DNA from: an uncultured Candidatus Saccharibacteria bacterium
GTDB taxonomy: Bacteria > Patescibacteriota > Minisyncoccia > Phycocordibacterales > UBA9973
DNA length: 64,000 nt
Direction: 5' to 3'
Assembly (NCBI GenBank): GCA_964639185.1
Contig: CAZXCN010000003.1
Coordinates: forward strand, 14,059-78,058
Made by a program: the position numbers and the translations under genes. The notes below the pieces were generated by a model. The model saw nothing but the letters and a program-made list of their open reading frames with translations. It had not been told where the DNA came from and ran no database searches. Shown here piece after piece: positions 946-38,686 of the stretch; positions within the stretch are counted from its first letter, which is position 1; the number at the start of each line of letters is the position of its first letter.

Positions 946-2025
946 ATGGACAAGTTTATAGACATATCACTGTATACAACATTCAAGCTCGCTTCATATG
1001 CGGGGGAACTTGTGGTTTTTAAAGGTGGTGATGTAAAAAATATTATAGGTTCTATAAATAAAGATAATAATAAAATTTTTGTGCTAGGTGGTGGGTCCAA
1101 TATTATATTGCCGAATGATATGACAAATTTTAGTATTTTAAAAATAGAAAATAAAGGCATTGAAAAATTAAATGACCCCGAAGGAAAGAATACTTCCAAC
1201 GGGGCAGGAGATGATGTTTTTATTAGAGTTGCTGCAGGAGAGGTGTGGGATGATGTGGTGCAGTATGCTGTTGATAATAATTATTCAGGTATTGAAGCTT
1301 TGTCGGCGATCCCTGGAACAGCAGGCGCTACACCTGTACAAAATGTAGGTGCTTATGGGCAGGAAATCAAAGATGTATTGGTATCTATCGATGCATATGA
1401 CACACAAGCTGGCGAGATGGTTAGTATTACAAATACCGAATGCGAATTTAGTTATCGTATGAGTCGGTTTAAAAAGGACTGGAAGGGTAGATACATAATT
1501 ACACATATAATACTAAAGCTTTCAAAGAATCAACCAAAATTACCAGACTACCCAGGTGTAAAAAAATATTTTGAAAACAAAATACTCAGCCAGCCGTCCG
1601 ACGGCTATCTGGGTCCTAGCTTGCAGGAAATTCGTGATGCTATTATTGAAATACGCTGGTCAAAATTACCAAAACCTGAAGAAATTCCTAATTGTGGATC
1701 ATTCTTTGAGAATCCGATAGTAGATAAAAGTATTGCGGATAAAATAAAACAAGATTATCCGAACATGCCAACATTTCACGTCTCCGCTAGGAAAGACCTA
1801 GCGGAAGAGTTAGTAAAGATACCTGCTGGCTGGCTGATAGAAAATTCCGGACTCAAAGGCGCAGATTTTGGTACTGTAGGTACTTATGAAAAGAATGCTC
1901 TGGTATTGATAAACCTAGGCTCTGCAACTCAGGATGATGTAATCAGTGCTCGTGATCAGATAATCAGTGCTGTTTATGAAAAGTTTGGAATAACTCTTGA
2001 ATCGGAACCGGAGATAGTTAAATAA
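946..2025 (+). CDS. murB: UDP-N-acetylenolpyruvoylglucosamine reductase (MurB)
   Basis: VLGGGSNIIL and AIPGTAGATPVQNVGAYGQE are MurB FAD-binding motifs. SYRMSRFK is also typical. The gene is divergent from murA. Confidence 0.85.
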   Translation: MDKFIDISLYTTFKLASYAGELVVFKGGDVKNIIGSINKDNNKIFVLGGGSNIILPNDMTNFSILKIENKGIEKLNDPEGKNTSNGAGDDVFIRVAAGEVWDDVVQYAVDNNYSGIEALSAIPGTAGATPVQNVGAYGQEIKDVLVSIDAYDTQAGEMVSITNTECEFSYRMSRFKKDWKGRYIITHIILKLSKNQPKLPDYPGVKKYFENKILSQPSDGYLGPSLQEIRDAIIEIRWSKLPKPEEIPNCGSFFENPIVDKSIADKIKQDYPNMPTFHVSARKDLAEELVKIPAGWLIENSGLKGADFGTVGTYEKNALVLINLGSATQDDVISARDQIISAVYEKFGITLESEPEIVK

Positions 2026-2049
2026 AGATGGCTTGGCCACGAATACACT

Positions 2050-2101
2050 CCGGCACAATAATAAAATCCCCTATTTATAGGGGATTTTATTATTGTGCCG
2101 G
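2050..2101. terminator. Long perfect palindrome acting as a bidirectional terminator between murB and tRNA-Leu
   Basis: ccggcacaataataaaatcccctat-ttat-aggggattttattattgtgccgg. The right arm overlaps the tRNA-Leu 3' end. Confidence 0.6.
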
Positions 2102-2177
2102 AGAAGGGACTTGAACCCTTAACCCTTGCGAGACACGATTTTGAGTCGTGCGCGTATACCAATTCCGCCACTCCGGC
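2096..2177 (-). tRNA. tRNA-Leu (anticodon CAA), long variable arm
   Basis: The reverse complement reads GCCGGAGUGGCGGAAUUGGUAUACGCGCACGACUCAAAAUCGUG...AAGGGUUCAAGUCCCUUCUCCGGCA. Acceptor GCCGGAG pairs with CUCCGGC, the anticodon loop is CUCAAAA and the T-loop is UUCAAGU. No CCA is encoded. Confidence 0.85.
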
Positions 2178-2253
2178 GAGTAAGGATAGTATACTAAAAT
2201 ATGGCAAAAAATCAATTTTTGGTTATGTAAAATTTTTATGTTAAAATATCCTC

Positions 2254-3264
2254 ATGTCACAATTATACAGTAACTCAATATTTTGGATTGATGTAGATAA
2301 GATCAAGCCAAACCCATATCAGCCACGCCGTGAATTCGATGAAGCTCGATTAAAAGATTTATCCAGTTCTATTCGCCAATATGGTATCCTTCAACCTCTA
2401 ACAGTATCACGTAATGAAGTTATAAAAGATGATGGGGGAATTGCTGTTGAATATGAATTAATAGCCGGTGAGCGCCGACTACGTGCTTCAAAGTTGGCTG
2501 GATTGCGTGAAGTACCTGTAGTAATACGTGTCGGGGATGATAGTATGGCTAAATTGGAACTTGCTATTATAGAGAATTTACAACGCGAAGATTTGAATGC
2601 TGTTGAGCGCGCTCGTGCATTTATGAAACTTGCTGAAGAATTCAAATTTACTCATGCACAAATAGGTTTAAAAGTAGGCAAGAGTCGTGAATATGTTTCT
2701 AATACTTTGCGCTTGCTAGCTTTACCTCAAGAAGTTCTGGATGCCCTATCACAAGGCAAAATTACAGAAGGTCATACTCGTCCAATACTTATGCTTTCTG
2801 ATAGACCTGAAGAGCAGATGGTTCTATTTAAAGAGATAATGTTTAAAAAGATCAATGTTCGTGATGCTGAAAAAATGGCACGTCGTGTTGCAACTGATCG
2901 AGTTCGCAAGAAGGAATACATGCCAGATCCAGAAATGTCTGCTATAGAGGAACGTCTTCAAGAGACTCTGGGTACTCGTGTACATATCGAACGTGGAGAA
3001 GTTGGCGGTCAGATCACTATTGATTTCTTTTCTAACGAAGACCTAGAAACTATATTAGAAATAATAAAGACAAATAATGTTGCTGAAAAACATGCAATGT
3101 TAAAGAAGTATGAAGCTAGTCAAATGACTGCAAATACAGAAAAACCAATAGAGTCAAAGGAAGATATTTTCGACAATGCACCTATCGATGACCGTACTAA
3201 AGATGAAATCCAAAAATCTGAAGAAGAAGCTGACCTATATAATATAAGTAAATTCTCTTTATAA
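2254..3264 (+). CDS. parB: ParB/Spo0J-like chromosome partitioning protein
   Basis: ParB N-terminal box (LIAGERRLRASKLAGL), HTH region (GLKVGKSREYVSNTLRLL) and an acidic C-terminus. No parA is adjacent. Confidence 0.8.
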   Translation: MSQLYSNSIFWIDVDKIKPNPYQPRREFDEARLKDLSSSIRQYGILQPLTVSRNEVIKDDGGIAVEYELIAGERRLRASKLAGLREVPVVIRVGDDSMAKLELAIIENLQREDLNAVERARAFMKLAEEFKFTHAQIGLKVGKSREYVSNTLRLLALPQEVLDALSQGKITEGHTRPILMLSDRPEEQMVLFKEIMFKKINVRDAEKMARRVATDRVRKKEYMPDPEMSAIEERLQETLGTRVHIERGEVGGQITIDFFSNEDLETILEIIKTNNVAEKHAMLKKYEASQMTANTEKPIESKEDIFDNAPIDDRTKDEIQKSEEEADLYNISKFSL

Positions 3265-3267
3265 AAT

Positions 3268-4758
3268 TTAGAATCCAGTATAAGAACGCAAGCGTGATAG
3301 TAGACTATTTTCTTTTAGGTAAGCATTAATATACTTTTTAGCCATACTTGTTTTTACATTATCGATCCACTTGCTGGATGGATTAGACTTTTTATTTACT
3401 ACTATTTCCACGATGTCATTATTGTGAAGTTTAGTGAATAGTGTGGTCATCTTGCTATTTATCTTTGCGCTTTGGGCATGATTACCAATATCTGAGTGTA
3501 TTGCATAAGCAAAGTCGATAACTGTTGAGTCTTCTGGTAGATCTACGACATCACCTTTTGGTGTTAGGACGAATATTCTATCTTTAAAAAGATCCATCTT
3601 TAGATGCTCTAAGAACTTTTCAGGATTTATCTTCTTTTCCTCCAATCCCTTCAATTCTTCTAGCCATTCAAGATTCTTTGAGCTAGGAGTGTTGTCATCA
3701 GTAGAAGCTTTTTTATTTCTTCTATTACTTTCTTCTTTATATATAAAATGTGCTGCAACACCATAGGCAGCTTCAGCATGCATTTCTGTGGTGCGTATTT
3801 GGATCTCGACTATACCACCATTACCTGTAAAGATTGTAGTGTGTAGACTTCGATAACCATTTGGCTTTGGCATGGCTATATAGTCTTTTATGCGCCCTGG
3901 CATTGGTCGCCACAGCATATGTATGAGCCCAAGTGTTCGATAACAATCCTCGATGTCTTTTACTATTACTCGTATGGCAACAATATCATATATTTTATCG
4001 ATATCCATTTCATAGCGCTTTAATTTCTGCCATAGACTATATTTATGTTTCTCTCGTTCATCTATCTCAATGAATTTTATATTATTCTTTTCCAATTCTT
4101 CTTTTAAGGTTTCTGATACTATCTCTAACTCTTCATTGTTTGAAGTAGACTTTTCTTTTAAAAGATCTTCAACTTTTGCATAATCTTCTGGAAATACATA
4201 AGGGAAAGCTGCGTCTTCAAGAGCACCTTTTAACTTACCCATACCGATACGATCAGCAAGGCGGGCATGTATTTGGATAGTTTCGAGTGCTATGCGATAA
4301 CGTTTGTCTTCGCGTACGTGTTGGAGTGTTCGGACATTGTGTAGTCTGTCTGCAAGCTTGATAATCAATACTCGCAAATCTTCGGCCACAGCCATGAAGA
4401 ATTTACGTAGACTTTCAACATGACGTTCTGCTCCACGGTATTTTAATTTACCCAGTTTAGTAACACCTTTTACTAGACGAACTATTTCTTCACCAAACTT
4501 TTTTTGCATCTCTTCTTCGGGGATTTCTGTATCTTCGAGTGTATCGTGTAGTAGGCCTGCTACTATAGTACTAGCATCCATACCTAAGCCCGCCAATATT
4601 TTGGCAGTTTCAAATACATGTATAAAGTAAGGTTCACCACTATTACGCAGTTGACCTTCGTGGGCACTCATAGCAAAATCGTAAGCTTTCTGTATCAAGA
4701 CTTTGTCAGCCTTGTTTAGCTTGTGAGCTTGTTCAAATATTTCATTGATATCTGGCAT
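3268..4758 (-). CDS. rel: RelA/SpoT-homolog (p)ppGpp synthetase/hydrolase, short form (HD + synthetase + TGS, no ACT/ZFD C-terminus)
   Basis: HD motif HVFETAKILAGLGMDASTIVAGLLHDTLEDT. Synthetase motif GRIKDYIAMPKPNGYRSLHTTI. TGS-like VLTPKGDVVDLPEDSTVIDFAYAIHSDIG at the C-terminus. Only 496 aa. Confidence 0.85.
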   Translation of the reverse strand: MPDINEIFEQAHKLNKADKVLIQKAYDFAMSAHEGQLRNSGEPYFIHVFETAKILAGLGMDASTIVAGLLHDTLEDTEIPEEEMQKKFGEEIVRLVKGVTKLGKLKYRGAERHVESLRKFFMAVAEDLRVLIIKLADRLHNVRTLQHVREDKRYRIALETIQIHARLADRIGMGKLKGALEDAAFPYVFPEDYAKVEDLLKEKSTSNNEELEIVSETLKEELEKNNIKFIEIDEREKHKYSLWQKLKRYEMDIDKIYDIVAIRVIVKDIEDCYRTLGLIHMLWRPMPGRIKDYIAMPKPNGYRSLHTTIFTGNGGIVEIQIRTTEMHAEAAYGVAAHFIYKEESNRRNKKASTDDNTPSSKNLEWLEELKGLEEKKINPEKFLEHLKMDLFKDRIFVLTPKGDVVDLPEDSTVIDFAYAIHSDIGNHAQSAKINSKMTTLFTKLHNNDIVEIVVNKKSNPSSKWIDNVKTSMAKKYINAYLKENSLLSRLRSYTGF

Positions 4759-8140: not shown

Positions 8141-9448
8141 ATGTTAGACATTAAATTCATCAGGGAAAATACCGATATAGTAAAAGCAGGCATAAAGAAT
8201 AAAAATTCAGATATAGATATTGATTTATTGATAAAACTTGACGATAGGCGTCTGGCTGTATTAAAGATGACCGAGGATCTACGTGCCGAGCAGAATAGGA
8301 TGAATGCTTCTATTTCAATAGAAAAAGATTCTTCAAAAAGGGAACAGATGATAGAGGAAATGCGTTTGGTAAAAGACGATTTTAAAAAAGGGGAAGAAGA
8401 GCTTCGTGAGGTGATGTCACAATGGCAAGGATTAATGTTGAAAATACCAAATATCCCATCTGTAGATACACCTGTGGCTCCTGATGAGAGTGGTAATATG
8501 GTTATAAGGCAATGGGGAGAAAAGCCACAATTTAATTTTACACCAAAGGAGCATTTTGAAATTGGTAAAAAATTAGGCTTGATAGATACTGAAACAGCAG
8601 CCGAAGTAGCATCCTCACGATTTTCATATTTAAAAGGTGATCTTGTTATGATGCAATTTGCACTCATTCAAATGTGTTTAGGTATTTTAACTAATAAGGA
8701 AACATTACAAAAAATTGCTGATGAAGCTGGTATATCTATTAGCGTAGACAGCTTTATGCCTGTGATACCACCAGTATTTATTCGCCCGATAGTTCAGGTA
8801 AAGATGGCGCGCATGATGGCACCAGAGGATCATTATATGTTTCCTGATGATGATTTGATGCTTATTGGTAGTGCCGAACACACACTTGGTTCTATGCATA
8901 TGAATAAAATATTTGAAGAAAATGAATTGCCAATACGTTATGCTGGATACTCTACAGCTTTTAGACGTGAGGCTGGTACTGCTGGCAAGGATACAAATGG
9001 AATATTACGTCAGCATCAATTCGATAAATTAGAGATGGAAGTTTTTTCATTACCAGAGAATTCTATCCAGGAGCACAATTTCCTAGTAGCTATTCAGGAG
9101 CATGTTTTGAAAACTTTAAATCTACCTTATCAAGTTGTGTCTGTTTGTACTGGTGATATGGGCTTTCCTGACACAAGGCAAATAGATATTGAAACTTGGA
9201 TGCCAGGCCAAAATATATATAGGGAAACTCATAGTGCTGATGCAACTGGTGGATTCCAAGCTCGTAGATTAAATACTCGTGTACGTCGTGCCGATGGTAG
9301 GATCGAGCCCGTACATATGACCGATGCTACTGTTGTAGCTATTGGCCGAACTTTGATAGGTATAATCGAGAATTATCAGCAAGAAGATGGCAGTATTCGT
9401 GTACCGGAAGCTTTGCAAAAATATTTAGGTAAAGATTTTATTAAATAA
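8141..9448 (+). CDS. serS: Seryl-tRNA synthetase
   Basis: N-terminus MLDIKFIREN with a coiled-coil arm. Class II motifs FRREAGTAGKDTNGILRQHQFDKLE and GRTLIGIIENYQ at the C-terminus. Confidence 0.9.
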   Translation: MLDIKFIRENTDIVKAGIKNKNSDIDIDLLIKLDDRRLAVLKMTEDLRAEQNRMNASISIEKDSSKREQMIEEMRLVKDDFKKGEEELREVMSQWQGLMLKIPNIPSVDTPVAPDESGNMVIRQWGEKPQFNFTPKEHFEIGKKLGLIDTETAAEVASSRFSYLKGDLVMMQFALIQMCLGILTNKETLQKIADEAGISISVDSFMPVIPPVFIRPIVQVKMARMMAPEDHYMFPDDDLMLIGSAEHTLGSMHMNKIFEENELPIRYAGYSTAFRREAGTAGKDTNGILRQHQFDKLEMEVFSLPENSIQEHNFLVAIQEHVLKTLNLPYQVVSVCTGDMGFPDTRQIDIETWMPGQNIYRETHSADATGGFQARRLNTRVRRADGRIEPVHMTDATVVAIGRTLIGIIENYQQEDGSIRVPEALQKYLGKDFIK

Positions 9449-9463
9449 TAGAATAAGTTATTC

Positions 9464-10345
9464 ATGGCAAAAGCTAATAGCTCACTTGTTACATCTCCAC
9501 GCATAACAGAGATCAAGCGTAGAAAAAAGAAGCGAATACGATTTGCTATTATTTTTTATACCATATCAATTATTATAGTTTTTGTTGGTTTAGGATTCTT
9601 GTCTCGATTACCAAAAATAAGGATAACAAATATTGAAGTAAATGGTACACATATAGTAGACAGTACTCAAGTTATTGAAAATATAAAAGGTCATATAAGT
9701 GGCCGATATATTTATATGTTTGATCGTAATAATGCTTTCCTGTATCCAAAAAGAAATATTGAGCAGGATCTTGTCCATAAATTTCCTAGGATTAATAGCA
9801 TTGATATTTCTTTGAAAGGTTTTAATACTATAATAGTCACAATCGATGAGCGTACTGGATCATATTTATGGTGTGGCGCTAACATCCCAGCAGTTATAAC
9901 TGAATCTGGGGACAATTGTTATTTTATAAATTCAAATGGTGAAGTATTCGACAAAGCCCCGTATTTTTCAGGTAGTGTGTATTTTAAATTTTATGTACCA
10001 ATAGATGGCATGGAGGACCCATTGAATAAAATAATTTTAAATACAGAAACATTGCAGAAAGTTATAGCATTTGTCGATGGGTTAGAAGCTTTGGGTTTCG
10101 ATACTGTATCTGTGGTTATGGCTGACCCAGAGGCTTTTGCTTTTCACTTGGACCGCAAAGGTAATACAGCCGAGCCTGTGATTTATTTCAATAAAGAAAA
10201 TGACTTAAATAAAATATTTGAAAATTTAGCATCGGCGATGAGTAAAGATGAATTTAAAGATAATATAAATTCCAAATATAATAATTTAGATTATATTGAT
10301 TTACGTTTTAATAATAAAGTCTTATATAAATTCCGCAATGAATAA
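9464..10345 (+). CDS. ftsQ: FtsQ/DivIB-like cell division protein (single N-terminal TM + POTRA-like domain)
   Basis: Basic N-terminus, a single TM (FAIIFYTISIIIVFVGLGFL) and a POTRA-like IRITNIEVNGTHIVDSTQVIENI. Size and layout are typical of FtsQ. Confidence 0.5.
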   Translation: MAKANSSLVTSPRITEIKRRKKKRIRFAIIFYTISIIIVFVGLGFLSRLPKIRITNIEVNGTHIVDSTQVIENIKGHISGRYIYMFDRNNAFLYPKRNIEQDLVHKFPRINSIDISLKGFNTIIVTIDERTGSYLWCGANIPAVITESGDNCYFINSNGEVFDKAPYFSGSVYFKFYVPIDGMEDPLNKIILNTETLQKVIAFVDGLEALGFDTVSVVMADPEAFAFHLDRKGNTAEPVIYFNKENDLNKIFENLASAMSKDEFKDNINSKYNNLDYIDLRFNNKVLYKFRNE

Positions 10346-11432
10346 TTTTTGGGAAAAATTGCCTAAGCCTTTTTTTGCTCTTGCACCAATGGCCGATGTT
10401 ACAGATGCTGCCTTTAGGCGTATCATTACCAAATGCTCTCGTCATGGAGAAGTCGGTGGTGGGCCTGATGTTTTTTGGACAGAATTTGTATCAGCAGATG
10501 GGCTGATGAGCGCAGGTAGGGAAGTTCTAAAAAGGGATTTGGAATACAGTGTGGAAGAGAGCCCGATAGTGGCTCAATTATTTTCCTCGCATCCTGATCG
10601 CATGCGTGGTGCTGCTAAATTGTGTGCAGAATTAGGCTTTGATGGTATTGATATTAATATGGGGTGCCCTGATCGTAGTATCGAGAAGCAGGGCGCCGGT
10701 GCATGCATGATAAAGACTCCAGATATAGCAGGCCAAATAATTCAAGCTGTAAAAGATGGTATCAAAGATGCAGGACGCGATATACCAGTATCTGTAAAAA
10801 CTCGTGTTGGTTACAACACAGTACAAATCAATGAATGGATCCCTTTTCTTCTGTCACAAGACATTGCTACGTTGACTGTGCATGCTCGTACTCGTAAAGA
10901 AATGTCCAAGGTTCCTGCACGCTGGGAACATATAAGTGAAGTGGTGAAAATCCGTGACCGCATGGGTGTAAAAACAAAAATTATTGGTAATGGTGATGTG
11001 GTAGATATTGCGCATGGGTATACACTTGCAGAGCAAACTGGGTGTGATGGCATAATGATCGGTCGTGCAGTATTTGGTAATCCGTGGATATTTGACCATG
11101 ATAGAGTGGTTATAAAAAGACCAAAGAAAATGAATTTATTTTTGGCGAAAATCTTATCACGTAAAATGATGAAGAAATTGCAAGGCGCCGACCGCTATAC
11201 AGTTTCCGAAGTTCCAATAAAAGAAAAATTGCAAACTCTAGTAGAGCATACAAAATTGTACGATGAATTGCTTGGTGATATTAAAAGCTTCTCGATCATG
11301 AAGAAGCACTACAAGGCATATGTGAATGGTTTCGAAGGGGCTAAAGAATTAAGAGTTAAATTAATGGAAACAAATTCATCAAAAGAAGTAGAGGGTATAA
11401 TAAACGATTTTTTAAAATTTAATTATAAATAA
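10338..11432 (+). CDS. dus: tRNA-dihydrouridine synthase (Dus family)
   Basis: MNNFWEKLPKPFFALAPMADVTDAAFRRII is the Dus N-terminus (FMN-binding TIM barrel). Start reassigned to the ATG at 10338; the track ORF at 10296 overlaps ftsQ. Confidence 0.8.
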   Translation: MNNFWEKLPKPFFALAPMADVTDAAFRRIITKCSRHGEVGGGPDVFWTEFVSADGLMSAGREVLKRDLEYSVEESPIVAQLFSSHPDRMRGAAKLCAELGFDGIDINMGCPDRSIEKQGAGACMIKTPDIAGQIIQAVKDGIKDAGRDIPVSVKTRVGYNTVQINEWIPFLLSQDIATLTVHARTRKEMSKVPARWEHISEVVKIRDRMGVKTKIIGNGDVVDIAHGYTLAEQTGCDGIMIGRAVFGNPWIFDHDRVVIKRPKKMNLFLAKILSRKMMKKLQGADRYTVSEVPIKEKLQTLVEHTKLYDELLGDIKSFSIMKKHYKAYVNGFEGAKELRVKLMETNSSKEVEGIINDFLKFNYK

Positions 11433-16663: not shown

Positions 16664-18015
16664 TGTATATTTTTAAAGTGATTGATTACAAAAAATATTT
16701 CAAAGGTAAGAAGATAACCATCATGGGGTTGGGGGTTCTTGGGCGTGGACTTGGCTATACCAAGTTCTTGGCAGAATGCGGCGCTGAATTGATAGTGACA
16801 GATATGAAGACAAAGGAACAATTGGCAAGTTCTATAAAAGAACTTAAAAAATATAAAAATATTGAATGGGTATTAGGTGAACATAGAATGCAGGATTTCA
16901 AGAACGTAGACATGGTTATAAAGAATCCGGGGATTCCTGCTGGCTCTATTTATATAAAAGAAGCTCGCAAGAATAAGATCCCTGTAGAGATGGATGCATC
17001 GCTTTTTGCAAAGCTTGCACCCGAGGTAACACTCGTAGGTGTGACAGGTACTAGGGGCAAGACTATGACTACGATGCTAATATACGAAATACTTAAGAGT
17101 GCAAAAAAGCGAGTTTTTTTGGGTGGTAATATTCGTGGTATTGCAACACTGCCACTACTTGCAAAAGTGAAGAAGGGTGACTTGGTGGTGATGGAGCTCG
17201 ACTCTTGGCAATGTGCTGGATTCGGTGAAGCCAAAATTTCCCCACATATTGCTGTATTCACTACATTTATGCGTGACCATATGAACTATTACGCTGGTAG
17301 TATGAAGAAATATTTTGTAGACAAGGCCAATATCTTTAAATATCAAAAGAAGGGTGACATGCTAATAATACGACCCGAGATGAAGAAGCTAATTCCAAAA
17401 GGTGCAGCTTGTAAATTAGTGGTGGCTAATAGCAAGAACGTTGCCGATGTGGATTTCACAATTCCTGGAACTCACCAACTTGCAAACTTGGCTTGTGCTG
17501 TTGAGGCAGTGAAAGCTTTGGGTGTATCAGATACAATAATCAAGAAAGCCGTGAAAAATTTCAAAGGAGTAGAAGGGCGTCTTCAATATATGAAGACTGT
17601 AAAAGGGGTAAAGATCTACAACGATAACAATGCCACAACTCCAGAGGCAACAATGGTGGGTATCGAAGCATTATCTTTCAAAAAGAATATTGTATTGATA
17701 TGTGGTGGTAGTGATAAGAATATAGAAACAAAGTCACTTGTGAATGCAATAAATAAATATACAAAGGCCGTGGTATTGTTGCCTGGAAGTGGAACAGATA
17801 AATTGGTAAGTAGTATGCAGAAAGTAGTGAGTAGTAAGGGAAATACAGAATTAATAAATGCGAAGGATCTGAAAGATGCGGTGGGGAAGGCGGTGAAGAG
17901 TGCAGTGAAGGGGGATACAATATTATTCTCGCCAGCATTTGCATCGTTTGGAATGTTTACGAATGAATATGACCGCAACGACCAATTTGTAAAGATAATA
18001 AAAGGGTTGAAATAA
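16663..18015 (+). CDS. murD: UDP-N-acetylmuramoylalanine--D-glutamate ligase MurD
   Basis: N-terminal Rossmann KKITIMGLGVLGRGLGYTKFLAECGAELIVTD. P-loop GVTGTRGKTMTTMLIYEIL. Confidence 0.85.
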   Translation: MYIFKVIDYKKYFKGKKITIMGLGVLGRGLGYTKFLAECGAELIVTDMKTKEQLASSIKELKKYKNIEWVLGEHRMQDFKNVDMVIKNPGIPAGSIYIKEARKNKIPVEMDASLFAKLAPEVTLVGVTGTRGKTMTTMLIYEILKSAKKRVFLGGNIRGIATLPLLAKVKKGDLVVMELDSWQCAGFGEAKISPHIAVFTTFMRDHMNYYAGSMKKYFVDKANIFKYQKKGDMLIIRPEMKKLIPKGAACKLVVANSKNVADVDFTIPGTHQLANLACAVEAVKALGVSDTIIKKAVKNFKGVEGRLQYMKTVKGVKIYNDNNATTPEATMVGIEALSFKKNIVLICGGSDKNIETKSLVNAINKYTKAVVLLPGSGTDKLVSSMQKVVSSKGNTELINAKDLKDAVGKAVKSAVKGDTILFSPAFASFGMFTNEYDRNDQFVKIIKGLK

Positions 18016-32412: not shown

Positions 32413-32817
32413 ATGGCATATAGATTAAAAGAATTAAAAATCGAGTCTTCTAAGTACAAGTTAGAAGCTAATGATGAAGAAAAAAAAGCCTTAAATCAAA
32501 TAGGGATGTGCGAAAAGAATAAAAATAAACCGCATATTATCTCTAATCATTATTGGGTAAGAGAAAAAGACGCTATGTGTAATTGTTTAAATTGTGACCT
32601 CTCCTTTTTAAAAGGTCATCTCTATTTAATACCACAAGGTGTGATTTTAATTGAAGAAGAAAATAGGAGAAAATTTATTAAGAAAAAGACTAGTCCTGAG
32701 CTTAATTCTAATTCTAATTCTGAGACTAAAATTAATTCTAATTCTAATTCTAATTCTAATTTTAATTCTGAGATTAAGGTTAAACCTTATTTTAAAATGC
32801 ACTTTGGCTCAAATTAA
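32413..32817 (+). CDS. Hypothetical protein with a Cys cluster (CNCLNCD) and a Ser/Asn-rich low-complexity tail
   Basis: ORF with NSNSNSETKINSNSNSNSNFNSE encoded by the hexamer repeat. No homology recognised. Confidence 0.35.
   Translation: MAYRLKELKIESSKYKLEANDEEKKALNQIGMCEKNKNKPHIISNHYWVREKDAMCNCLNCDLSFLKGHLYLIPQGVILIEEENRRKFIKKKTSPELNSNSNSETKINSNSNSNSNFNSEIKVKPYFKMHFGSN
32704..32770 (+). repeat. Tandem hexamer repeat (AATTCT)n, two runs, inside the ORF
   Basis: aattctaattctaattct ... aattctaattctaattctaattct. Confidence 0.8.
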
Positions 32818-32837: not shown

Positions 32838-32868
32838 AAAACAGCGAATGAAAATTTGCTGTTTTTTT
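32838..32868 (+). terminator. Rho-independent terminator
   Basis: aaacagcgaatgaaaatttgctgttttttt. Confidence 0.6.
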
Positions 32869-32870
32869 AT

Positions 32871-33077
32871 GGGGGGCCTACAGGGAACATGAGTACATTT
32901 ATCGCCGACTACATCGGCAGGTACTTTTCCGGTCGTAAACGACACGGAAAAGTCTTTCGATTCTCTGACGCTAGCAAAGCAGTTTGCTCGCTTAGGGTCA
33001 CGCAATAAAAAAGGCCCGACAAAGTCGAGCTCTTTTTTATACGCGTGAGGGTTTAACAGATAGAACCCCCCCCAAGG
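32871..33077 (+). repeat. GC-rich repeat element E1. It starts with a direct repeat of the tRNA-Glu 3' end (cctacagggaa, 32877..32887), followed by a conserved arm (gagtac ... gtctttcgattct) and a tail (agggtt...ccccccccaagg)
   Basis: Shares cctacagggaac, gagtac and gtctttcgattct in the same order and orientation with the element at 36537..36640 and with the 3' end of tRNA-Glu at 36700..36715. Much higher GC than the flanks. Confidence 0.7.
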
Positions 33078-33119: not shown

Positions 33120-33584
33120 CTATTTAACTTTCTCGTGCATAGCTTGTTTCTCTTTTTGTTTTGCAACTTCAAGCAAATATTTTAATCCTTCATTGGAATT
33201 AAATTTATTTTGTATCTCTAATTTGAAATATCGAAAAATCATTACAACGAATGTAGTGAAAAAAAGTATGATAAAAATATTATATAAATAACCATGTGGT
33301 ACGTTTCTGTCTATTATATTAGCAACGAGGTTTCCTGAAATACCCAGTATTATTCCTAGAAATAAAAGCCAATATGATTCTCTCTTTTCTTCGATTTCTT
33401 TAACAACAGTTTCGAATTTTGTAATTTCTTTTTGTAAAGTATCAGTCATATTTTTGATAAAGACATCTTTGTCTTTATCAGGAATAGCATTCCATGTAGA
33501 AATACCCACTGTTTCAATTATTTTTTCTCTAATTTGATATTCTCGTTTTACGCTGTTTTCCATGATTAAAGTATTATAATACAA
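33120..33584 (-). CDS. Hypothetical protein, 154 aa: soluble N-terminal domain plus 2 C-terminal TM helices (island cargo)
   Basis: ORF with TMs LLFLGIILGISGNLVANII and LYNIFIILFFTTFVVMIF. Divergent from the 930-aa ORF. No homology recognised. Confidence 0.5.
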   Translation of the reverse strand: MYYNTLIMENSVKREYQIREKIIETVGISTWNAIPDKDKDVFIKNMTDTLQKEITKFETVVKEIEEKRESYWLLFLGIILGISGNLVANIIDRNVPHGYLYNIFIILFFTTFVVMIFRYFKLEIQNKFNSNEGLKYLLEVAKQKEKQAMHEKVK

Positions 33585-33676: not shown

Positions 33677-36469
33677 ATGGCTATTATGTGGCATAAATAT
33701 TTATACATAATACAAAATCCAGATCCTCAGACGTGTCTCGCAGGTCTCGTTTGTGCCAATGATACTTTTATTGCCATATACGGGGTCATATTCACTATTG
33801 TAATTTCCTTGGGTGTATATATTTATGGTCTACAAAACAGAGAAGAGAAAATAACCCTACTTAAAAGTACAGATATTAAAGGTATCATAGAAAACTCTCT
33901 TGGTTTTTTTGCATTTACTTTTTTTGCATTACCCAACCCCGTCTATGAAATTTTTAACTTTATATTTTTAGGATGGATTCTTCTGAGACTGCTAGGTGCT
34001 TTTAAGGAAGTCTTTAAATTTAATGAGAGCGAATTGTCGGGAGAAAGAGCTGTGAAGAAGTTCAAGGAAGGTGTGATTCGTGAGAAGCTTATCCAATTTG
34101 AGGATTTAAAGAAAAAGAATGAGTTACTGAATGAAGAACTTGAGAAGAAAAGGGGTGAGGAAATAGAAAGATTCCTCTTCAGTGAAAACAATGAGTCTTA
34201 TCACCTTATTCGCGCTCAAAGTTCCGGGTATATTACAGATATTGATCTCAATATCTTATTTGCGAATGAAGACAGTAAAGATTCTTTGGGAAATTATTCA
34301 TACTATATTCCGTATCACATTTCACACGGTGCTCCAATAGATTTCGATACAGTGATTCTCGGTGTAAAAAAAGATGGAGATAAGAAAATCGATGAAGACA
34401 GAGAAGACAGACTGCGGTCTTTCATATCTGTCAGTGATGAATATGAAAATCCGACCTCTTACATTGAAGCCGAAACAAGGAATTATTACCCACAAATGAT
34501 CTCCTTGATAAAGCTTGAAGATTCAAAAAGTCTTGAATTGAAACTTAAAGAATTTTCTAGCTTCGTTGATCATTTCACAAACAAGTCAGATTCGTACGTA
34601 GATATTATCCAATTTATTAATGATGATATTATCTTTACCTTGCAAAAATACGCATTCAAGCAAGGAAACGTTGATTGTATAAGAAAGGTGGTGTCGTTCT
34701 CTCTCGGATATATTTATCAGGCGTTAGACAAGAAATCAACGAAGACATTTAATATCTTTTTTAGAAACTTCGGGCATGCCTATTATGAAGCGTTCAGTCT
34801 CAATAAAAAAGAAAGGGATGAATTCTTTGATATTTATTTCAGATGGCTTAACGAAGTTGCTAAGTATTCATTAAAATCCAGAATCAAAAAGGATGATGAT
34901 TATTCGGAGTTTGTTACTACTTTTCTATCTGGAGTTAACGGATGGTTAAAAATTGCTTTTGACCGCAAAGACATTGATGTTTTCGAGAAAACACTGTCAT
35001 TCTTAAATAACTCTCTTTCCCGTGAGACGTATGAGCACGATAAGGATGATGCACTTGATGAGGCTGTTCTCACCAAGAAAGCTGTACTGTTTGGTTTTAC
35101 TGCGTGGGTGTATAAATATTTTCCGGCAAGAAAGGGCGATGACTTTTACCGCAATGCACTGTCCAAACTACTGTCAGCCTTGGCTAAGGATCCAATCCGT
35201 CACTACGCAAACAATCAAGATGATTTGAATTATTATTTGAGTATTTACTTAAAGAGTGCGGAACTCTCAGAAAGCAAGGGTTCTTTTGGATGGGATAGTT
35301 GGGATATGCCCGAGGGAACAGTTTCTACGGTTACAATACGTCATGATATTAAGAATCTGCTAACAGATCGTATTCTTAATATTGTATTAGCTAACCCCAC
35401 TCTAGCCGTTGATATAAAAGATAAAAATTATAACGACGAACTTTCTCTTGTAAAACAAGGCAACCAGCAGTTCGATGTTCTTCTAAATAAGACCAAAGAC
35501 TTTTTTGTCTCTACGGAAAAACTAACAGATGAACAATTTGATACCGCAAAAACTAAATTTTATGAAGTCTTCTCAAAGATCGCTGAAAAATACGAATCCG
35601 ATGTTAGGAGTAAGCTTATTCAGCAGTCAATTGATGATGAAAAATTTAATGAATTTGCAAAACAGAATTTTGAGTCATATAAAAAGTCGCGAGTTTTGTA
35701 CGGTATTCAAAAGTTTATAAAAGATAGTACAAAGAGGAGCGATGGTTTTGGATATAACACCCTCTTATCCAAAGAACAGTTTGTTAAAGAGACCAATGTT
35801 CACTATTCAAACGGAGACCAGTTTGGTGAAGATCTTGCTAGGTCAGAAGACAACAAGATTCTTGAATCCATCTACAAGAAAGTAGAAAAGACCCCTCTTA
35901 TTAGTAGAGAAAATATTGGTAAGAACATATATCCCGAGAGTGATACAACAGCCATCATCTTGTGGCTAAACGGCTACTTGAGTATCGAATCATATTCTCC
36001 TAACGATTTTGTTCCTTATTGGCAGGAAGTAGATTCCAGAAAAGATAAAGGTCCCTATTATCAAGGAACTATTAAGGGTGTTCCCGTGTATATCATTTAT
36101 AAGTTCCAAGATCAGAAGTCATATCCAGACTCCATGTTTATTTTTAAATCGGGGTCATTCTCTGCTCATGAATTTGAAATAGAGAAGGATACTGAGTTAG
36201 ATGAGGCAAACACAAAATGGTCAAACGATGAAGAAAGTTGTTTAACTTTATCCATAACTAACCTCTCAAGTCTTGATGAGGCTCGTAAAAAGATAGTTGA
36301 AAATTGGATCAAGAATGATCCTGATAGCGTAAAAGATAAAGACGCAAAAATTGAAGAGATTAAAACAGATGTGATCTTTAAATTCTATAAAGGACTGGGA
36401 GTTGAAGATTTAGTTATTGATGGTAAAAAAATTAAGATTTTCCGCATTAAGAGAAGTTGGATTAAGTAA
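33677..36469 (+). CDS. Large hypothetical protein, 930 aa: three N-terminal TM helices, a coiled-coil segment, then an ~800-aa cytoplasmic region with no recognisable motifs (island cargo)
   Basis: Long uninterrupted ORF. TMs at about residues 20-50, 65-85 and 90-110; coiled coil LIQFEDLKKKNELLNEELEKKRGEEIERF. No Walker A, integrase or nuclease signatures seen. Confidence 0.6.
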   Translation: MAIMWHKYLYIIQNPDPQTCLAGLVCANDTFIAIYGVIFTIVISLGVYIYGLQNREEKITLLKSTDIKGIIENSLGFFAFTFFALPNPVYEIFNFIFLGWILLRLLGAFKEVFKFNESELSGERAVKKFKEGVIREKLIQFEDLKKKNELLNEELEKKRGEEIERFLFSENNESYHLIRAQSSGYITDIDLNILFANEDSKDSLGNYSYYIPYHISHGAPIDFDTVILGVKKDGDKKIDEDREDRLRSFISVSDEYENPTSYIEAETRNYYPQMISLIKLEDSKSLELKLKEFSSFVDHFTNKSDSYVDIIQFINDDIIFTLQKYAFKQGNVDCIRKVVSFSLGYIYQALDKKSTKTFNIFFRNFGHAYYEAFSLNKKERDEFFDIYFRWLNEVAKYSLKSRIKKDDDYSEFVTTFLSGVNGWLKIAFDRKDIDVFEKTLSFLNNSLSRETYEHDKDDALDEAVLTKKAVLFGFTAWVYKYFPARKGDDFYRNALSKLLSALAKDPIRHYANNQDDLNYYLSIYLKSAELSESKGSFGWDSWDMPEGTVSTVTIRHDIKNLLTDRILNIVLANPTLAVDIKDKNYNDELSLVKQGNQQFDVLLNKTKDFFVSTEKLTDEQFDTAKTKFYEVFSKIAEKYESDVRSKLIQQSIDDEKFNEFAKQNFESYKKSRVLYGIQKFIKDSTKRSDGFGYNTLLSKEQFVKETNVHYSNGDQFGEDLARSEDNKILESIYKKVEKTPLISRENIGKNIYPESDTTAIILWLNGYLSIESYSPNDFVPYWQEVDSRKDKGPYYQGTIKGVPVYIIYKFQDQKSYPDSMFIFKSGSFSAHEFEIEKDTELDEANTKWSNDEESCLTLSITNLSSLDEARKKIVENWIKNDPDSVKDKDAKIEEIKTDVIFKFYKGLGVEDLVIDGKKIKIFRIKRSWIK

Positions 36470-36476
36470 GTTCACA

Positions 36477-36512
36477 GGTACCAAAATAGCCCTTTAAGGG
36501 CTATTTTGGTAC
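36477..36512 (+). terminator. Perfect 16-bp stem hairpin immediately after the 930-aa ORF (no T-run)
   Basis: ggtaccaaaatagccc-ttta-agggctattttggtac. Confidence 0.45.
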
Positions 36513-36536
36513 GCTTCTCGTGCCGCGCTCTTGAAG

Positions 36537-36700
36537 GTGACCCTACAGGGAACCGCGAGTACGCTTTCGGTCACGAGTCTTTTCTTGGTAGAAAAGCTCG
36601 CGACCCCGACTCGGCTCGACAGCCTCCGTCTTTCGATTCTTTTTAAACATAGATTTAGCTATGTTTAAAAATCACAAAATTTGTCCTGCGGAAAATTTTG
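36537..36700 (+). repeat. GC-rich repeat element E2. It has a 16-nt exact direct repeat of the tRNA-Glu 3' end (gtgaccctacagggaa, 36537..36552), a conserved arm (gagtac ... gtctttcgattct to 36640) and further hairpins up to the tRNA
   Basis: gtgaccctacagggaa is identical to 36700..36715. The arm is homologous to E1. It contains the palindromes aaacatagatttagctatgttt and cacaaaattt...aaattttgtg. Confidence 0.7.
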
Positions 36701-36772
36701 TGACCCTACAGGGAATCGAACCCTGATTCCATCCTTGAGAAGGATGTGTCCTAACCGTTAGACGATAGGGCC
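36701..36772 (-). tRNA. tRNA-Glu (anticodon CUC)
   Basis: The reverse complement reads GGCCCUAUCGUCUAACGGUUAGGACACAUCCUUCUCAAGGAUGGAAUCAGGGUUCGAUUCCCUGUAGGGUCA. The anticodon loop is UUCUCAA and the T-loop UUCGAUU. Confidence 0.85.
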
Positions 36773-38293: not shown

Positions 38294-38686
38294 ATGAAAA
38301 AAGGAGTATTAATAATTTCAATATTTATTTTATCAATAAGTTTTGGGCTGACAGCTTTCCCTCAGTCAGCAAATGCTGTGTGGGGTCTAAATGTTGGTTT
38401 GGGTTTTGGTAATGGTGGTTATGATAATTATGGTGGAGGCTACTCCTCATATGGTAACAATTATGGCAATAGTCCTTATGGCTATGGCTACAATGCGCCT
38501 TACAACGGAACTTGGGGTAATAATGCTTATACTAATCCATACGGTAGTTATTATGGTAACTACGGTAACAACAATAATGCAAGGCTTAATGTAGGTATTA
38601 ACTTTGGTTTCAATAATTATGGTGCTAACACTTATGGTGGATACGGAGGTTACTCATGTATGCCAACAAACATCTGGGGTTGCTAA
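38294..38686 (+). CDS. Secreted Gly/Tyr/Asn-rich low-complexity protein (130 aa) with a signal peptide and a C-terminal Cys pair
   Basis: Signal MKKGVLIISIFILSISFGLTAFPQSANA, then GYGYNAPYNGTWGNNAYTNPYGSYYGNYGNNNN ... CMPTNIWGC. Confidence 0.55.
   Translation: MKKGVLIISIFILSISFGLTAFPQSANAVWGLNVGLGFGNGGYDNYGGGYSSYGNNYGNSPYGYGYNAPYNGTWGNNAYTNPYGSYYGNYGNNNNARLNVGINFGFNNYGANTYGGYGGYSCMPTNIWGC

Follow-up and report, generated by a model that had tools for sequence, protein, structure and literature searches.

Which function can be assigned to a 930-residue membrane-anchored protein that no domain database recognises and whose gene lies beside a tRNA? This question is raised by the gene at positions 33677-36469 (+ strand) of a 64-kb stretch of contig CAZXCN010000003.1, from an uncultured Candidatus Saccharibacteria bacterium; we refer to this whole stretch as the window. 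Here, we report that the C-terminal third of the encoded protein is predicted to have the HK97 fold, which is that of tailed-phage capsids and encapsulin shells. Because the family to which it belongs travels on mobile elements and adjoins restriction and Gabija genes, we consider it to be a strong candidate for a novel type of anti-phage protein.

An intact gene without a recognisable family

The stretch 33677..36469 (+, stop included), delimited from the list of open reading frames (ORFs), the homologue alignment and the ratio of nonsynonymous to synonymous substitution rates (dN/dS), is an uninterrupted ORF of 930 amino acids (aa). It is the longest of the 64-kb window, with a runner-up of 758 aa; the initial annotation, made from the letters alone, had wrongly placed it behind topA. 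In the alignment, the residue equivalent to M4 is the start of most homologues, and the true start of the gene may be at 33686. The window is patescibacterial in look: its GC content is low, the gene is closely preceded by a dcw cluster (mraZ-rsmH-ftsL-PBP-murF), and the records from which homologues come bear the names Candidatus Paceibacterota or Patescibacteria.

A word-indexed search of 5.8 billion proteins returned 33 full-length homologues of ~905-947 aa, with 51-100% identity and no Pfam domain in any of them. The dN/dS values calculated against relatives that have no recombinase nearby are 0.12, 0.05 and 0.02. Together, the 33 full-length homologues and dN/dS values of 0.02-0.12 show that this ORF is a real and functional gene under purifying selection.

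Searches of the 930-aa protein against Pfam, NCBIfam, PADLOC v2 and PHROGs gave no match (none at E<=1 for Pfam and PADLOC v2), and neither did sequence-profile searches of the PDB with two family alignments. As the initial annotation had stated, no recognisable catalytic motif is present: the protein has no Walker A, HExxH or GxSxG motif and no convincing PD-(D/E)xK pattern. That annotation had also pointed to the segment RETYEH (residues 449-454), a single Rx4H match, as a feature reminiscent of HEPN proteins, and an HEPN-type RNase toxin or another enzymatic abortive-infection effector could be proposed on this ground. However, homologues of 87-88% identity have Y or R in place of H454, the motif sits inside the helical repeat domain of the AlphaFold2 (AF2) model, and no HEPN or enzyme match was found in Pfam, NCBIfam, PADLOC or PDB sequences. 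We thus rejected the HEPN reading of the motif, and an enzymatic effector of this type appears highly improbable.

A membrane anchor, a solenoid and a predicted HK97-fold domain

The full-length AF2 model, obtained with 25 homologues, has a predicted local distance difference test score (pLDDT) of 75.9. In the AF2 models, the protein is composed of five parts, namely a three-pass anchor, a long stalk helix, a small variable domain, an alpha-solenoid and a C-terminal domain. It is this last domain (residues 554-930; 35336..36466, +) that is predicted, from AF2 and structure comparison, to have the HK97 fold. Modelled separately, it reaches a pLDDT of 91 and a predicted TM-score (pTM) of 0.85, and the HK97 assignment was reached independently from the full-length model and from a Foldseek comparison against BFVD. 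Its elements follow each other in an order that fits the HK97 topology: a 32-residue 'spine' helix, a strand, a helix-sheet-helix A-domain and long C-terminal strands. The nearest structural neighbours are family 1 encapsulins, not phage capsids, with 9-12% sequence identity, and about half of the 377 residues of the domain fall outside the aligned core. Conservation within the domain is highest in the block of residues 688-731 ('DGFGYN..L.KEQFV.ETNVHY....QFGEDLARSEDN'), within which G692, K699, F702 and E724 are invariant across subfamilies.

The alpha-solenoid, a helical repeat domain that AF2 models with confidence (residues ~260-537; 34454..35287, +), precedes the HK97-fold domain and is connected to it by a short low-confidence linker (residues 538-553). 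The initial annotation had seen in these ~800 residues only charged and aromatic sequence; they are instead predicted to be folded, for the most part as the solenoid and the C-terminal domain. On the other hand, the phage origin that it had mentioned as an alternative comes back in an unexpected way, through the predicted capsid fold.

At the N-terminal end, hydropathy and AF2 define a membrane module of three helices (residues ~20-115; 33734..34021, +). The hydrophobic stretches are strong at residues 20-53 and 89-113 and weaker at residues 67-85, and the AF2 helices span residues 29-50, 67-80 and 89-115. The first transmembrane (TM) helix, TM1, is the most conserved stretch of the whole protein, with C26, N28, F31, Y35, G36, F39, T40, I43, Y48, G51, L52 and Q53 being invariant. 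It is followed, after the two other helices, by a stalk or coiled-coil helix of 40 residues (119-158; 34031..34150, +) seen in the AF2 secondary structure, in agreement with the three helices and coiled coil of the initial annotation. Over 25 homologues, the mean number of lysines and arginines is 0.5 at the N-terminus, 3.1 in loop 1, 0.0 in loop 2 and 5.3 after TM3. This positive-inside pattern points to an N-out/C-in topology in which the solenoid and the HK97-fold domain would lie in the cytoplasm, which speaks against the surface protein also envisaged at first. Altogether, it is well supported that the product is an inner-membrane protein, with the three N-terminal helices as its anchor and the rest in the cytoplasm.

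Between the stalk and the solenoid, a small beta-rich and partly variable domain (residues ~159-259; 34151..34453, +) is modelled with low confidence, the pLDDT being below 50 at residues 154-257 of the full-length model. Conserved 'SGYI.DIDL' and 'YYIPY.IS.GAPI' motifs flank an indel-rich segment in this domain (residues ~195-245; 34260-34410) that combines low model confidence with mosaic divergence, the indels falling in columns 201-300 of the homologue alignment. The dN of residues 116-259 is 0.233 against the homologue of locus L006 but 0.025 against that of L045, and other regions of the gene rank the two relatives in the opposite order by dS. These opposite rankings suggest that alleles have recombined, and residues ~195-245 may be a specificity determinant.

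A family in fused and split forms

A profile search of 1.84 billion cluster representatives retrieved 101 proteins at E<=1e-3, and the family amounts to at least 100 clusters at 50% identity. Next to the core group (~920 aa), a wider group of 1000-1150 aa aligns from the last TM helix or the solenoid to the end of the HK97-fold domain; its members also carry N-terminal multi-TM regions, and no Pfam domain was found in these distant homologues. According to the names of the sources, members come chiefly from the Candidate Phyla Radiation (Falkowbacteria, Pacebacteria, Peregrinibacteria, Moraniibacteriota, Portnoybacteria and others). Scattered members occur in an Ignavibacteria metagenome-assembled genome (MAG), in Exiguobacterium profundum, in an Owenweeksia MAG and other MAGs, and on a plasmid of Pseudanabaena galeata; for MAGs, the source name may be an unreliable label. 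The family is unannotated and its distribution is patchy and strain-variable. A tblastn search of 50,697 GenBank phage records found no relative, and short-peptide pattern scans of IMG/VR with two alignments, which are weak negatives, found none either.

A third group, of ~780-810 aa (~790), has no TM segment. In all six loci that encode such a protein (L035, L036, L038, L039, L043 and L044), an overlapping upstream gene encodes a protein of 150-190 aa with 2-4 TM helices, as in L039, where a multi-TM gene (8434-8934) overlaps a gene for a soluble solenoid-HK97 protein (8906-11257). The small multi-TM proteins of the six split loci are homologous to one another, and a hidden Markov model of the small TM gene matches residues 17-172 of the fused 1021-aa protein of P. 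galeata plasmid pPg_05 with an E-value of 2e-29 (L016 5823-8888). This pattern of fusion and fission indicates that the membrane module acts together with the solenoid-HK97 module. Moreover, the conservation of TM1 and the presence of the split TM gene before the soluble homologue in six loci suggest that the membrane module is integral to the function of the protein. Comparisons of the membrane modules of the three subfamilies with hhalign revealed no convincing homology (best P 0.011), and what is conserved is membrane attachment, not one specific anchor.

Genomic neighbourhoods of the defence type

In eight of ten loci of the wider family, the gene located directly upstream in the same direction is a component of a restriction-modification (R-M) system: GmrSD-HNH (2), N6_N4 methyltransferase (2), AlwI endonuclease (2), a type I/IIG methyltransferase-specificity fusion (1) and ResIII (1). 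A census of the 143 neighbours found within 4 kb of 19 loci gave the same picture, with ResIII, D12 and N6_N4 methyltransferases, Eco57I, DEAD, HNH, EcoRI methylase, AlwI, HsdR_N and GmrSD_N at the top, and the PADLOC matches among these neighbours (type II and type III methyltransferases, DpdF) agree with it. The L013 homologue stands among ArdC, HTH_17, helicase, AAA_23, Dnd-associated and radical-SAM genes, and the copy on the Pseudanabaena plasmid has PIN-domain genes on one side and a relaxase on the other. In Exiguobacterium, the copy stands alone, with ordinary genes around it.

The window itself provides another link to defence. Direct repeats that derive from the 3′ end of a tRNA-Glu(CUC) gene and from its downstream flank bracket two genes, that of the 930-aa protein, which lies just upstream of this tRNA, and a 154-aa ORF with two TM segments (33120..33584, - strand; ORF list and hydropathy). 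The L006 homologue is followed by the same tRNA. Among the 5.8 billion proteins searched, the 154-aa ORF has a single relative, encoded by L059 (GCA_964498035.1) in the same murF...tRNA-Glu region, between a tRNA 3′ fragment and an intact tRNA-Glu. There, the cargo consists of a complete Gabija system (1853-4633; GajA, E 2.8e-165; GajB, E 1.5e-117) and two small genes, and this islet of a close relative holds no 930-aa homologue. The locus is thus a small tRNA-Glu islet in which the cargo has been swapped for a known defence system, and the 154-aa gene is part of the islet backbone. The initial annotation had paired this ORF, which is real, with the 930-aa protein. We rejected it as the partner of a two-gene system because it is absent from the 11 homologous loci first fetched and because its sole relative occurs beside Gabija without the 930-aa gene. 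No integrase was found in the islet of the window genome or in that of L059, and no recombinase lies near the gene in the subclade of the window (>=77% identity).

In raw counts, homologues thus adjoin known defence genes in variable regions. The initial annotation had described the gene as island-borne and had suggested looking for its homologues in known defence islands; both ideas were borne out, here by the tRNA-Glu islet, where Gabija takes the same slot, and elsewhere by positions next to recombinases, on a plasmid and after R-M genes. We consider it well supported that the family is cargo of mobile elements or defence islands, being found beside large serine recombinases (LSRs), in the tRNA-Glu islet, on a plasmid and directly after R-M genes.

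These neighbourhoods bear on another explanation, in which the protein forms an encapsulin-like or coat-like assembly at the membrane with a cellular role unrelated to phages, such as substrate sequestration, membrane organisation or a sub-membrane lattice, and has spread horizontally as a useful function. It is consistent with family 1 encapsulins being the nearest structural neighbours, with the predicted TM helices of some family 3 encapsulins (PMC8346489), with the Exiguobacterium copy standing alone among ordinary genes and with the conserved motif of the HK97-fold domain, which suggests ligand binding. However, no conserved cargo or enzyme neighbour was found in 30 or more loci, where the neighbours that recur are only recombinases, methyltransferases and the split TM gene, and R-M, defence and mobile-element genes dominate. 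The protein also matches no encapsulin Pfam family, and the patchy, strain-variable distribution fits poorly with such a role. Thus, we hold a cellular assembly to be unlikely.

Recombinase elements and terminase genes

In the core family, an LSR (Resolvase + Recombinase + Zn_ribbon_recom) directly adjoins the gene, in divergent orientation, in L004, L009, L011, L051 and L057, and one lies within 5 kb in L001 and L003, making seven core contexts in total; in the wider family, an LSR is present within 10 kb in five loci. The LSR elements of the core family also hold N6_N4 or ParB methyltransferases and a small helix-turn-helix (HTH) protein. In Paceibacteria-like genomes, integrated elements of ~10 kb could be delimited in L001 (2329-12094), L003 (2514-12444), L004 (6550-17080) and L011 (4704-15569). 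Those of L001 and L003 contain a bona fide large terminase (phrog_38, E 2.7e-81) and an HTH small-terminase-like gene. In L004 and L011, a gene of 491-505 aa that has no PHROG or Pfam match occupies the terminase position. No portal, protease or tail gene was found in any LSR element examined. These ~10-kb elements may represent an undescribed type of satellite or decayed prophage.

This layout raises the question of whether the 930-aa protein is simply the structural protein of a virus-like mobile element, that is, the element's own capsid protein fused to a delta-domain-like helical scaffold and to an anchor, and working with the element's terminases and serine recombinase; the copy of the window would then be a remnant. 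Indeed, the HK97 fold is a capsid fold, N-terminal helical scaffolds fused to HK97-type capsid proteins are known from HK97 and T5, and the L001 and L003 elements carry an LSR, a true large terminase, a small-terminase-like gene, a methyltransferase and the 930-aa homologue with no other capsid gene, L004 and L011 being laid out similarly. Yet the missing portal, protease and tail genes are difficult to reconcile with a structural role, and so is the strong purifying selection on the gene where neither recombinase nor terminase is near (window, L006, L012, L013 and L016). Most members of the wider family follow R-M genes and are not part of morphogenesis modules, no relative was detected in GenBank phages or, with the weaker pattern scans, in IMG/VR, and a membrane anchor is hard to square with a closed icosahedral shell. 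A structural protein therefore seems an improbable explanation.

The divergent position of the gene beside a recombinase at the edge of an element is also typical of prophage exclusion genes. The protein could thus be a superinfection-exclusion factor that blocks DNA entry or another membrane step, with the HK97-fold domain acting as an oligomerising scaffold and not as a capsid sensor, and both its membrane anchor and the retention of the window copy as a solitary gene would be coherent with this role. However, most injection blockers act at the outer face or in the entry channel, whereas the large domain is predicted to be cytoplasmic, and soluble split versions exist. Nor would exclusion explain why different phyla have kept both the capsid fold and a solenoid of 280 residues. 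We regard it as quite unlikely.

Two observations concern the surroundings of these elements. Just outside the recombinase end of the L003 element (1-2517) lie genes for a type I HsdR, a Shedu-type SduA_C protein and a DUF5655 protein, and a RelB/YafQ toxin-antitoxin pair lies on the other side. The HsdR, SduA_C and RelB/YafQ genes that flank this element are a sign that LSR elements insert into, or form, defence islands. In L004, two tRNA_bind (PF01588) genes of 109 aa (801-1130 and 17672-18001), on the same strand and ~16.5 kb apart, bracket the recombinase element together with several metabolic genes and could be a duplication tied to integration.

Proposed function

Genomic context makes a defence effector, as first suggested by the initial annotation, plausible, the capsid fold being the real surprise. 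We propose that the 930-aa protein is a membrane-tethered capsid-fold protein acting in conflicts with phages or mobile elements, a reading to which we give about an even chance. Every tailed phage builds a shell of HK97 fold, and HK97-fold domains naturally form pentamers and hexamers. The protein would be a stand-alone anti-phage or anti-mobile-element protein, whose solenoid and stalk would hold the capsid-fold domain under the membrane, on the cytoplasmic side. There, this domain could recognise, or co-assemble with, the capsid-assembly intermediates of an infecting tailed phage or, alternatively, self-assemble like a capsomer upon a trigger. As a result, procapsid assembly could be sequestered or poisoned, or the conserved TM helices could cluster and compromise the membrane, leading to abortive infection. 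More tentatively, the whole family might be a class, not recognised before, of domesticated HK97 'capsid mimics', membrane-tethered in fused or split form, that serve as stand-alone immune proteins, detect or poison the assembly of tailed-phage capsids at the membrane and are spread by serine-recombinase elements, tRNA islets and plasmids in Patescibacteria and other phyla.

Several points weigh against this proposal. The defence role is deduced from the genomic context; R-M genes are common in Patescibacteria, which makes guilt by association weaker there, and no PADLOC v2 model matches the protein. The gene travels with terminase genes in five contexts, which fits a structural role as well. 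The HK97 assignment stands on predicted and not on solved structures, and the model of residues 554-930 shows no clear beta-hairpin E-loop. The conserved block at residues 688-731 looks more like a ligand-binding or active site than like a capsid contact surface. One cross-phylum family is found, with no obvious match to any particular phage capsid protein. Finally, no homology could be demonstrated between the TM modules of the three subfamilies, and the membrane part may be a mere anchor.

If a conserved, membrane-anchored version of the HK97 fold is established in defence islands and mobile elements, it would add a new reuse of a capsid protein. Were the proposed function true, the principle of defence would be capsid mimicry, and not nucleic-acid or nucleotide chemistry, and the family would be among the few candidate defences other than R-M in Patescibacteria, whose phage biology is almost unknown. 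The homologues of the cultured Firmicute Exiguobacterium profundum and of the Pseudanabaena plasmid make this idea directly testable.

Boundaries of the tRNA-Glu islet and neighbouring ORFs

The anchor of the islet is the tRNA-Glu(CUC) gene (36700..36772, - strand), identified by ARAGORN and by the Rfam tRNA model (61.5 bits). On the left, the islet is bounded by repeat copy A (32866..33045, +), which begins with a degenerate tRNA-3′-like segment (32872-32890) and was defined by repeat search and alignment. On the other side, repeat copy B (36531..36650, +), found by repeat search, alignment and blastn against L059, begins with 19 nt of tRNA-Glu 3′-end sequence (36537-36555, 95%); in the blastn comparison, this copy corresponds to the native flank downstream of the tRNA. 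Just past the stop codon of the 930-aa gene, repeat search and blastn revealed a perfect 17-bp hairpin (36478..36512). L006 and the Gabija-carrying islet of L059 have this hairpin at the corresponding end of the islet, and it therefore belongs to the islet backbone.

The repeats form a GC-rich non-coding block on either side of the 154-aa and 930-aa genes, which starts with the tRNA-Glu-3′-like 'CCTACAGGGAAC' and contains 'GTCTTTCGATTCT'. It occurs in the window (32866-33045 and 36531-36650), in L011 (15710-15858) and in L059 (6489-6669). Within copy A, positions 32947-33040 are 79% identical over 95 nt, with conserved small hairpins, to a non-coding block that lies at the far end of L011's LSR element, in a distant genome. 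In Rfam searches of the flanking repeats, the tRNA was the sole match. The block could be an att flank or a small RNA.

Two other ORFs of the window deserve mention. Between murF and the islet, a 134-aa ORF (32413-32817) has zinc-ribbon-like CxxC cysteine pairs, and a 12-nt tandem repeat (32679-32774) gives it an Asn-Ser repeat. Its only family match is a weak one in PHROGs, and the related loci hold no homologue of it. Between prs and RmuC, a 130-aa ORF (38294-38686) combines a signal-like N-terminus with a body that is extremely rich in Gly, Tyr and Asn (GGY and NNYG repeats).

Comparison with known systems

The HK97 fold has been described in the capsids of viruses, in gene transfer agents (GTAs), in satellites and in encapsulins. 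The 930-aa protein shares its predicted fold with the capsid proteins of tailed phages, GTAs and satellites, such as HK97 gp5, T4 gp24, the head protein of the capsid-forming phage-inducible chromosomal island (cf-PICI) EcCI2 and the Ccm/CP proteins of SaPIbov5. In contrast to these, its family comes without portal, protease or tail genes, and no relative was found in phage and viral-contig collections; the window has no head-morphogenesis module (portal, protease/scaffold, terminase). Furthermore, the protein is membrane-anchored and kept as a solitary gene under purifying selection, and most of its relatives follow R-M genes.

The same shell fold is found in the family 1 encapsulins of Pyrococcus furiosus (PfV, 2e0z), Brevibacterium linens (linocin M18, 7bcv) and Thermotoga maritima (7k5w). 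Here, however, the identity is only 9-12%, and the 930-aa protein has ~550 additional N-terminal residues, comprising the three-helix anchor and the alpha-solenoid. It matches neither PF04454 nor any other sequence group of encapsulins (family 2 group, PF05065, PF08967; Pfam E<=1). No cargo gene or targeting peptide lies near the genes of the family, whose surroundings are mobile elements, R-M and defence genes and not metabolic operons. The membrane anchor also argues against a free closed shell.

With regard to the layout, the membrane module and large cytoplasmic module of the 930-aa family resemble RexA/RexB, Kiwa KwaA/KwaB and the single-gene membrane-anchored abortive infection (Abi) proteins of prophages. 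The two modules, which the window gene joins in one protein and six loci encode as two overlapping genes, recall a sensor and a membrane effector, in layout only, since there is no relation of sequence or fold with these proteins. To our knowledge, no defence system of the RexAB, Kiwa or Abi kind uses an HK97-fold domain.

Our literature searches found no description of a membrane-anchored or defence-linked HK97-fold family, and the nearest case is that of the TM-containing family 3 encapsulins. These HK97-fold shell proteins with predicted TM helices are encoded in biosynthetic clusters of Mesorhizobium (PMC8346489). They belong to PF05065, are encoded within natural-product gene clusters and carry their TM helices as inserted segments, whereas the 930-aa protein has no PF05065 match, an N-terminal anchor and a context of defence and mobile elements. 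Altogether, membership of the encapsulins fails on sequence family, cargo and solubility, and membership of the phage capsids fails on morphogenesis context and on presence in viral genomes. In kind, the 930-aa protein comes closest to a domesticated HK97-fold protein, with encapsulins as the known example.

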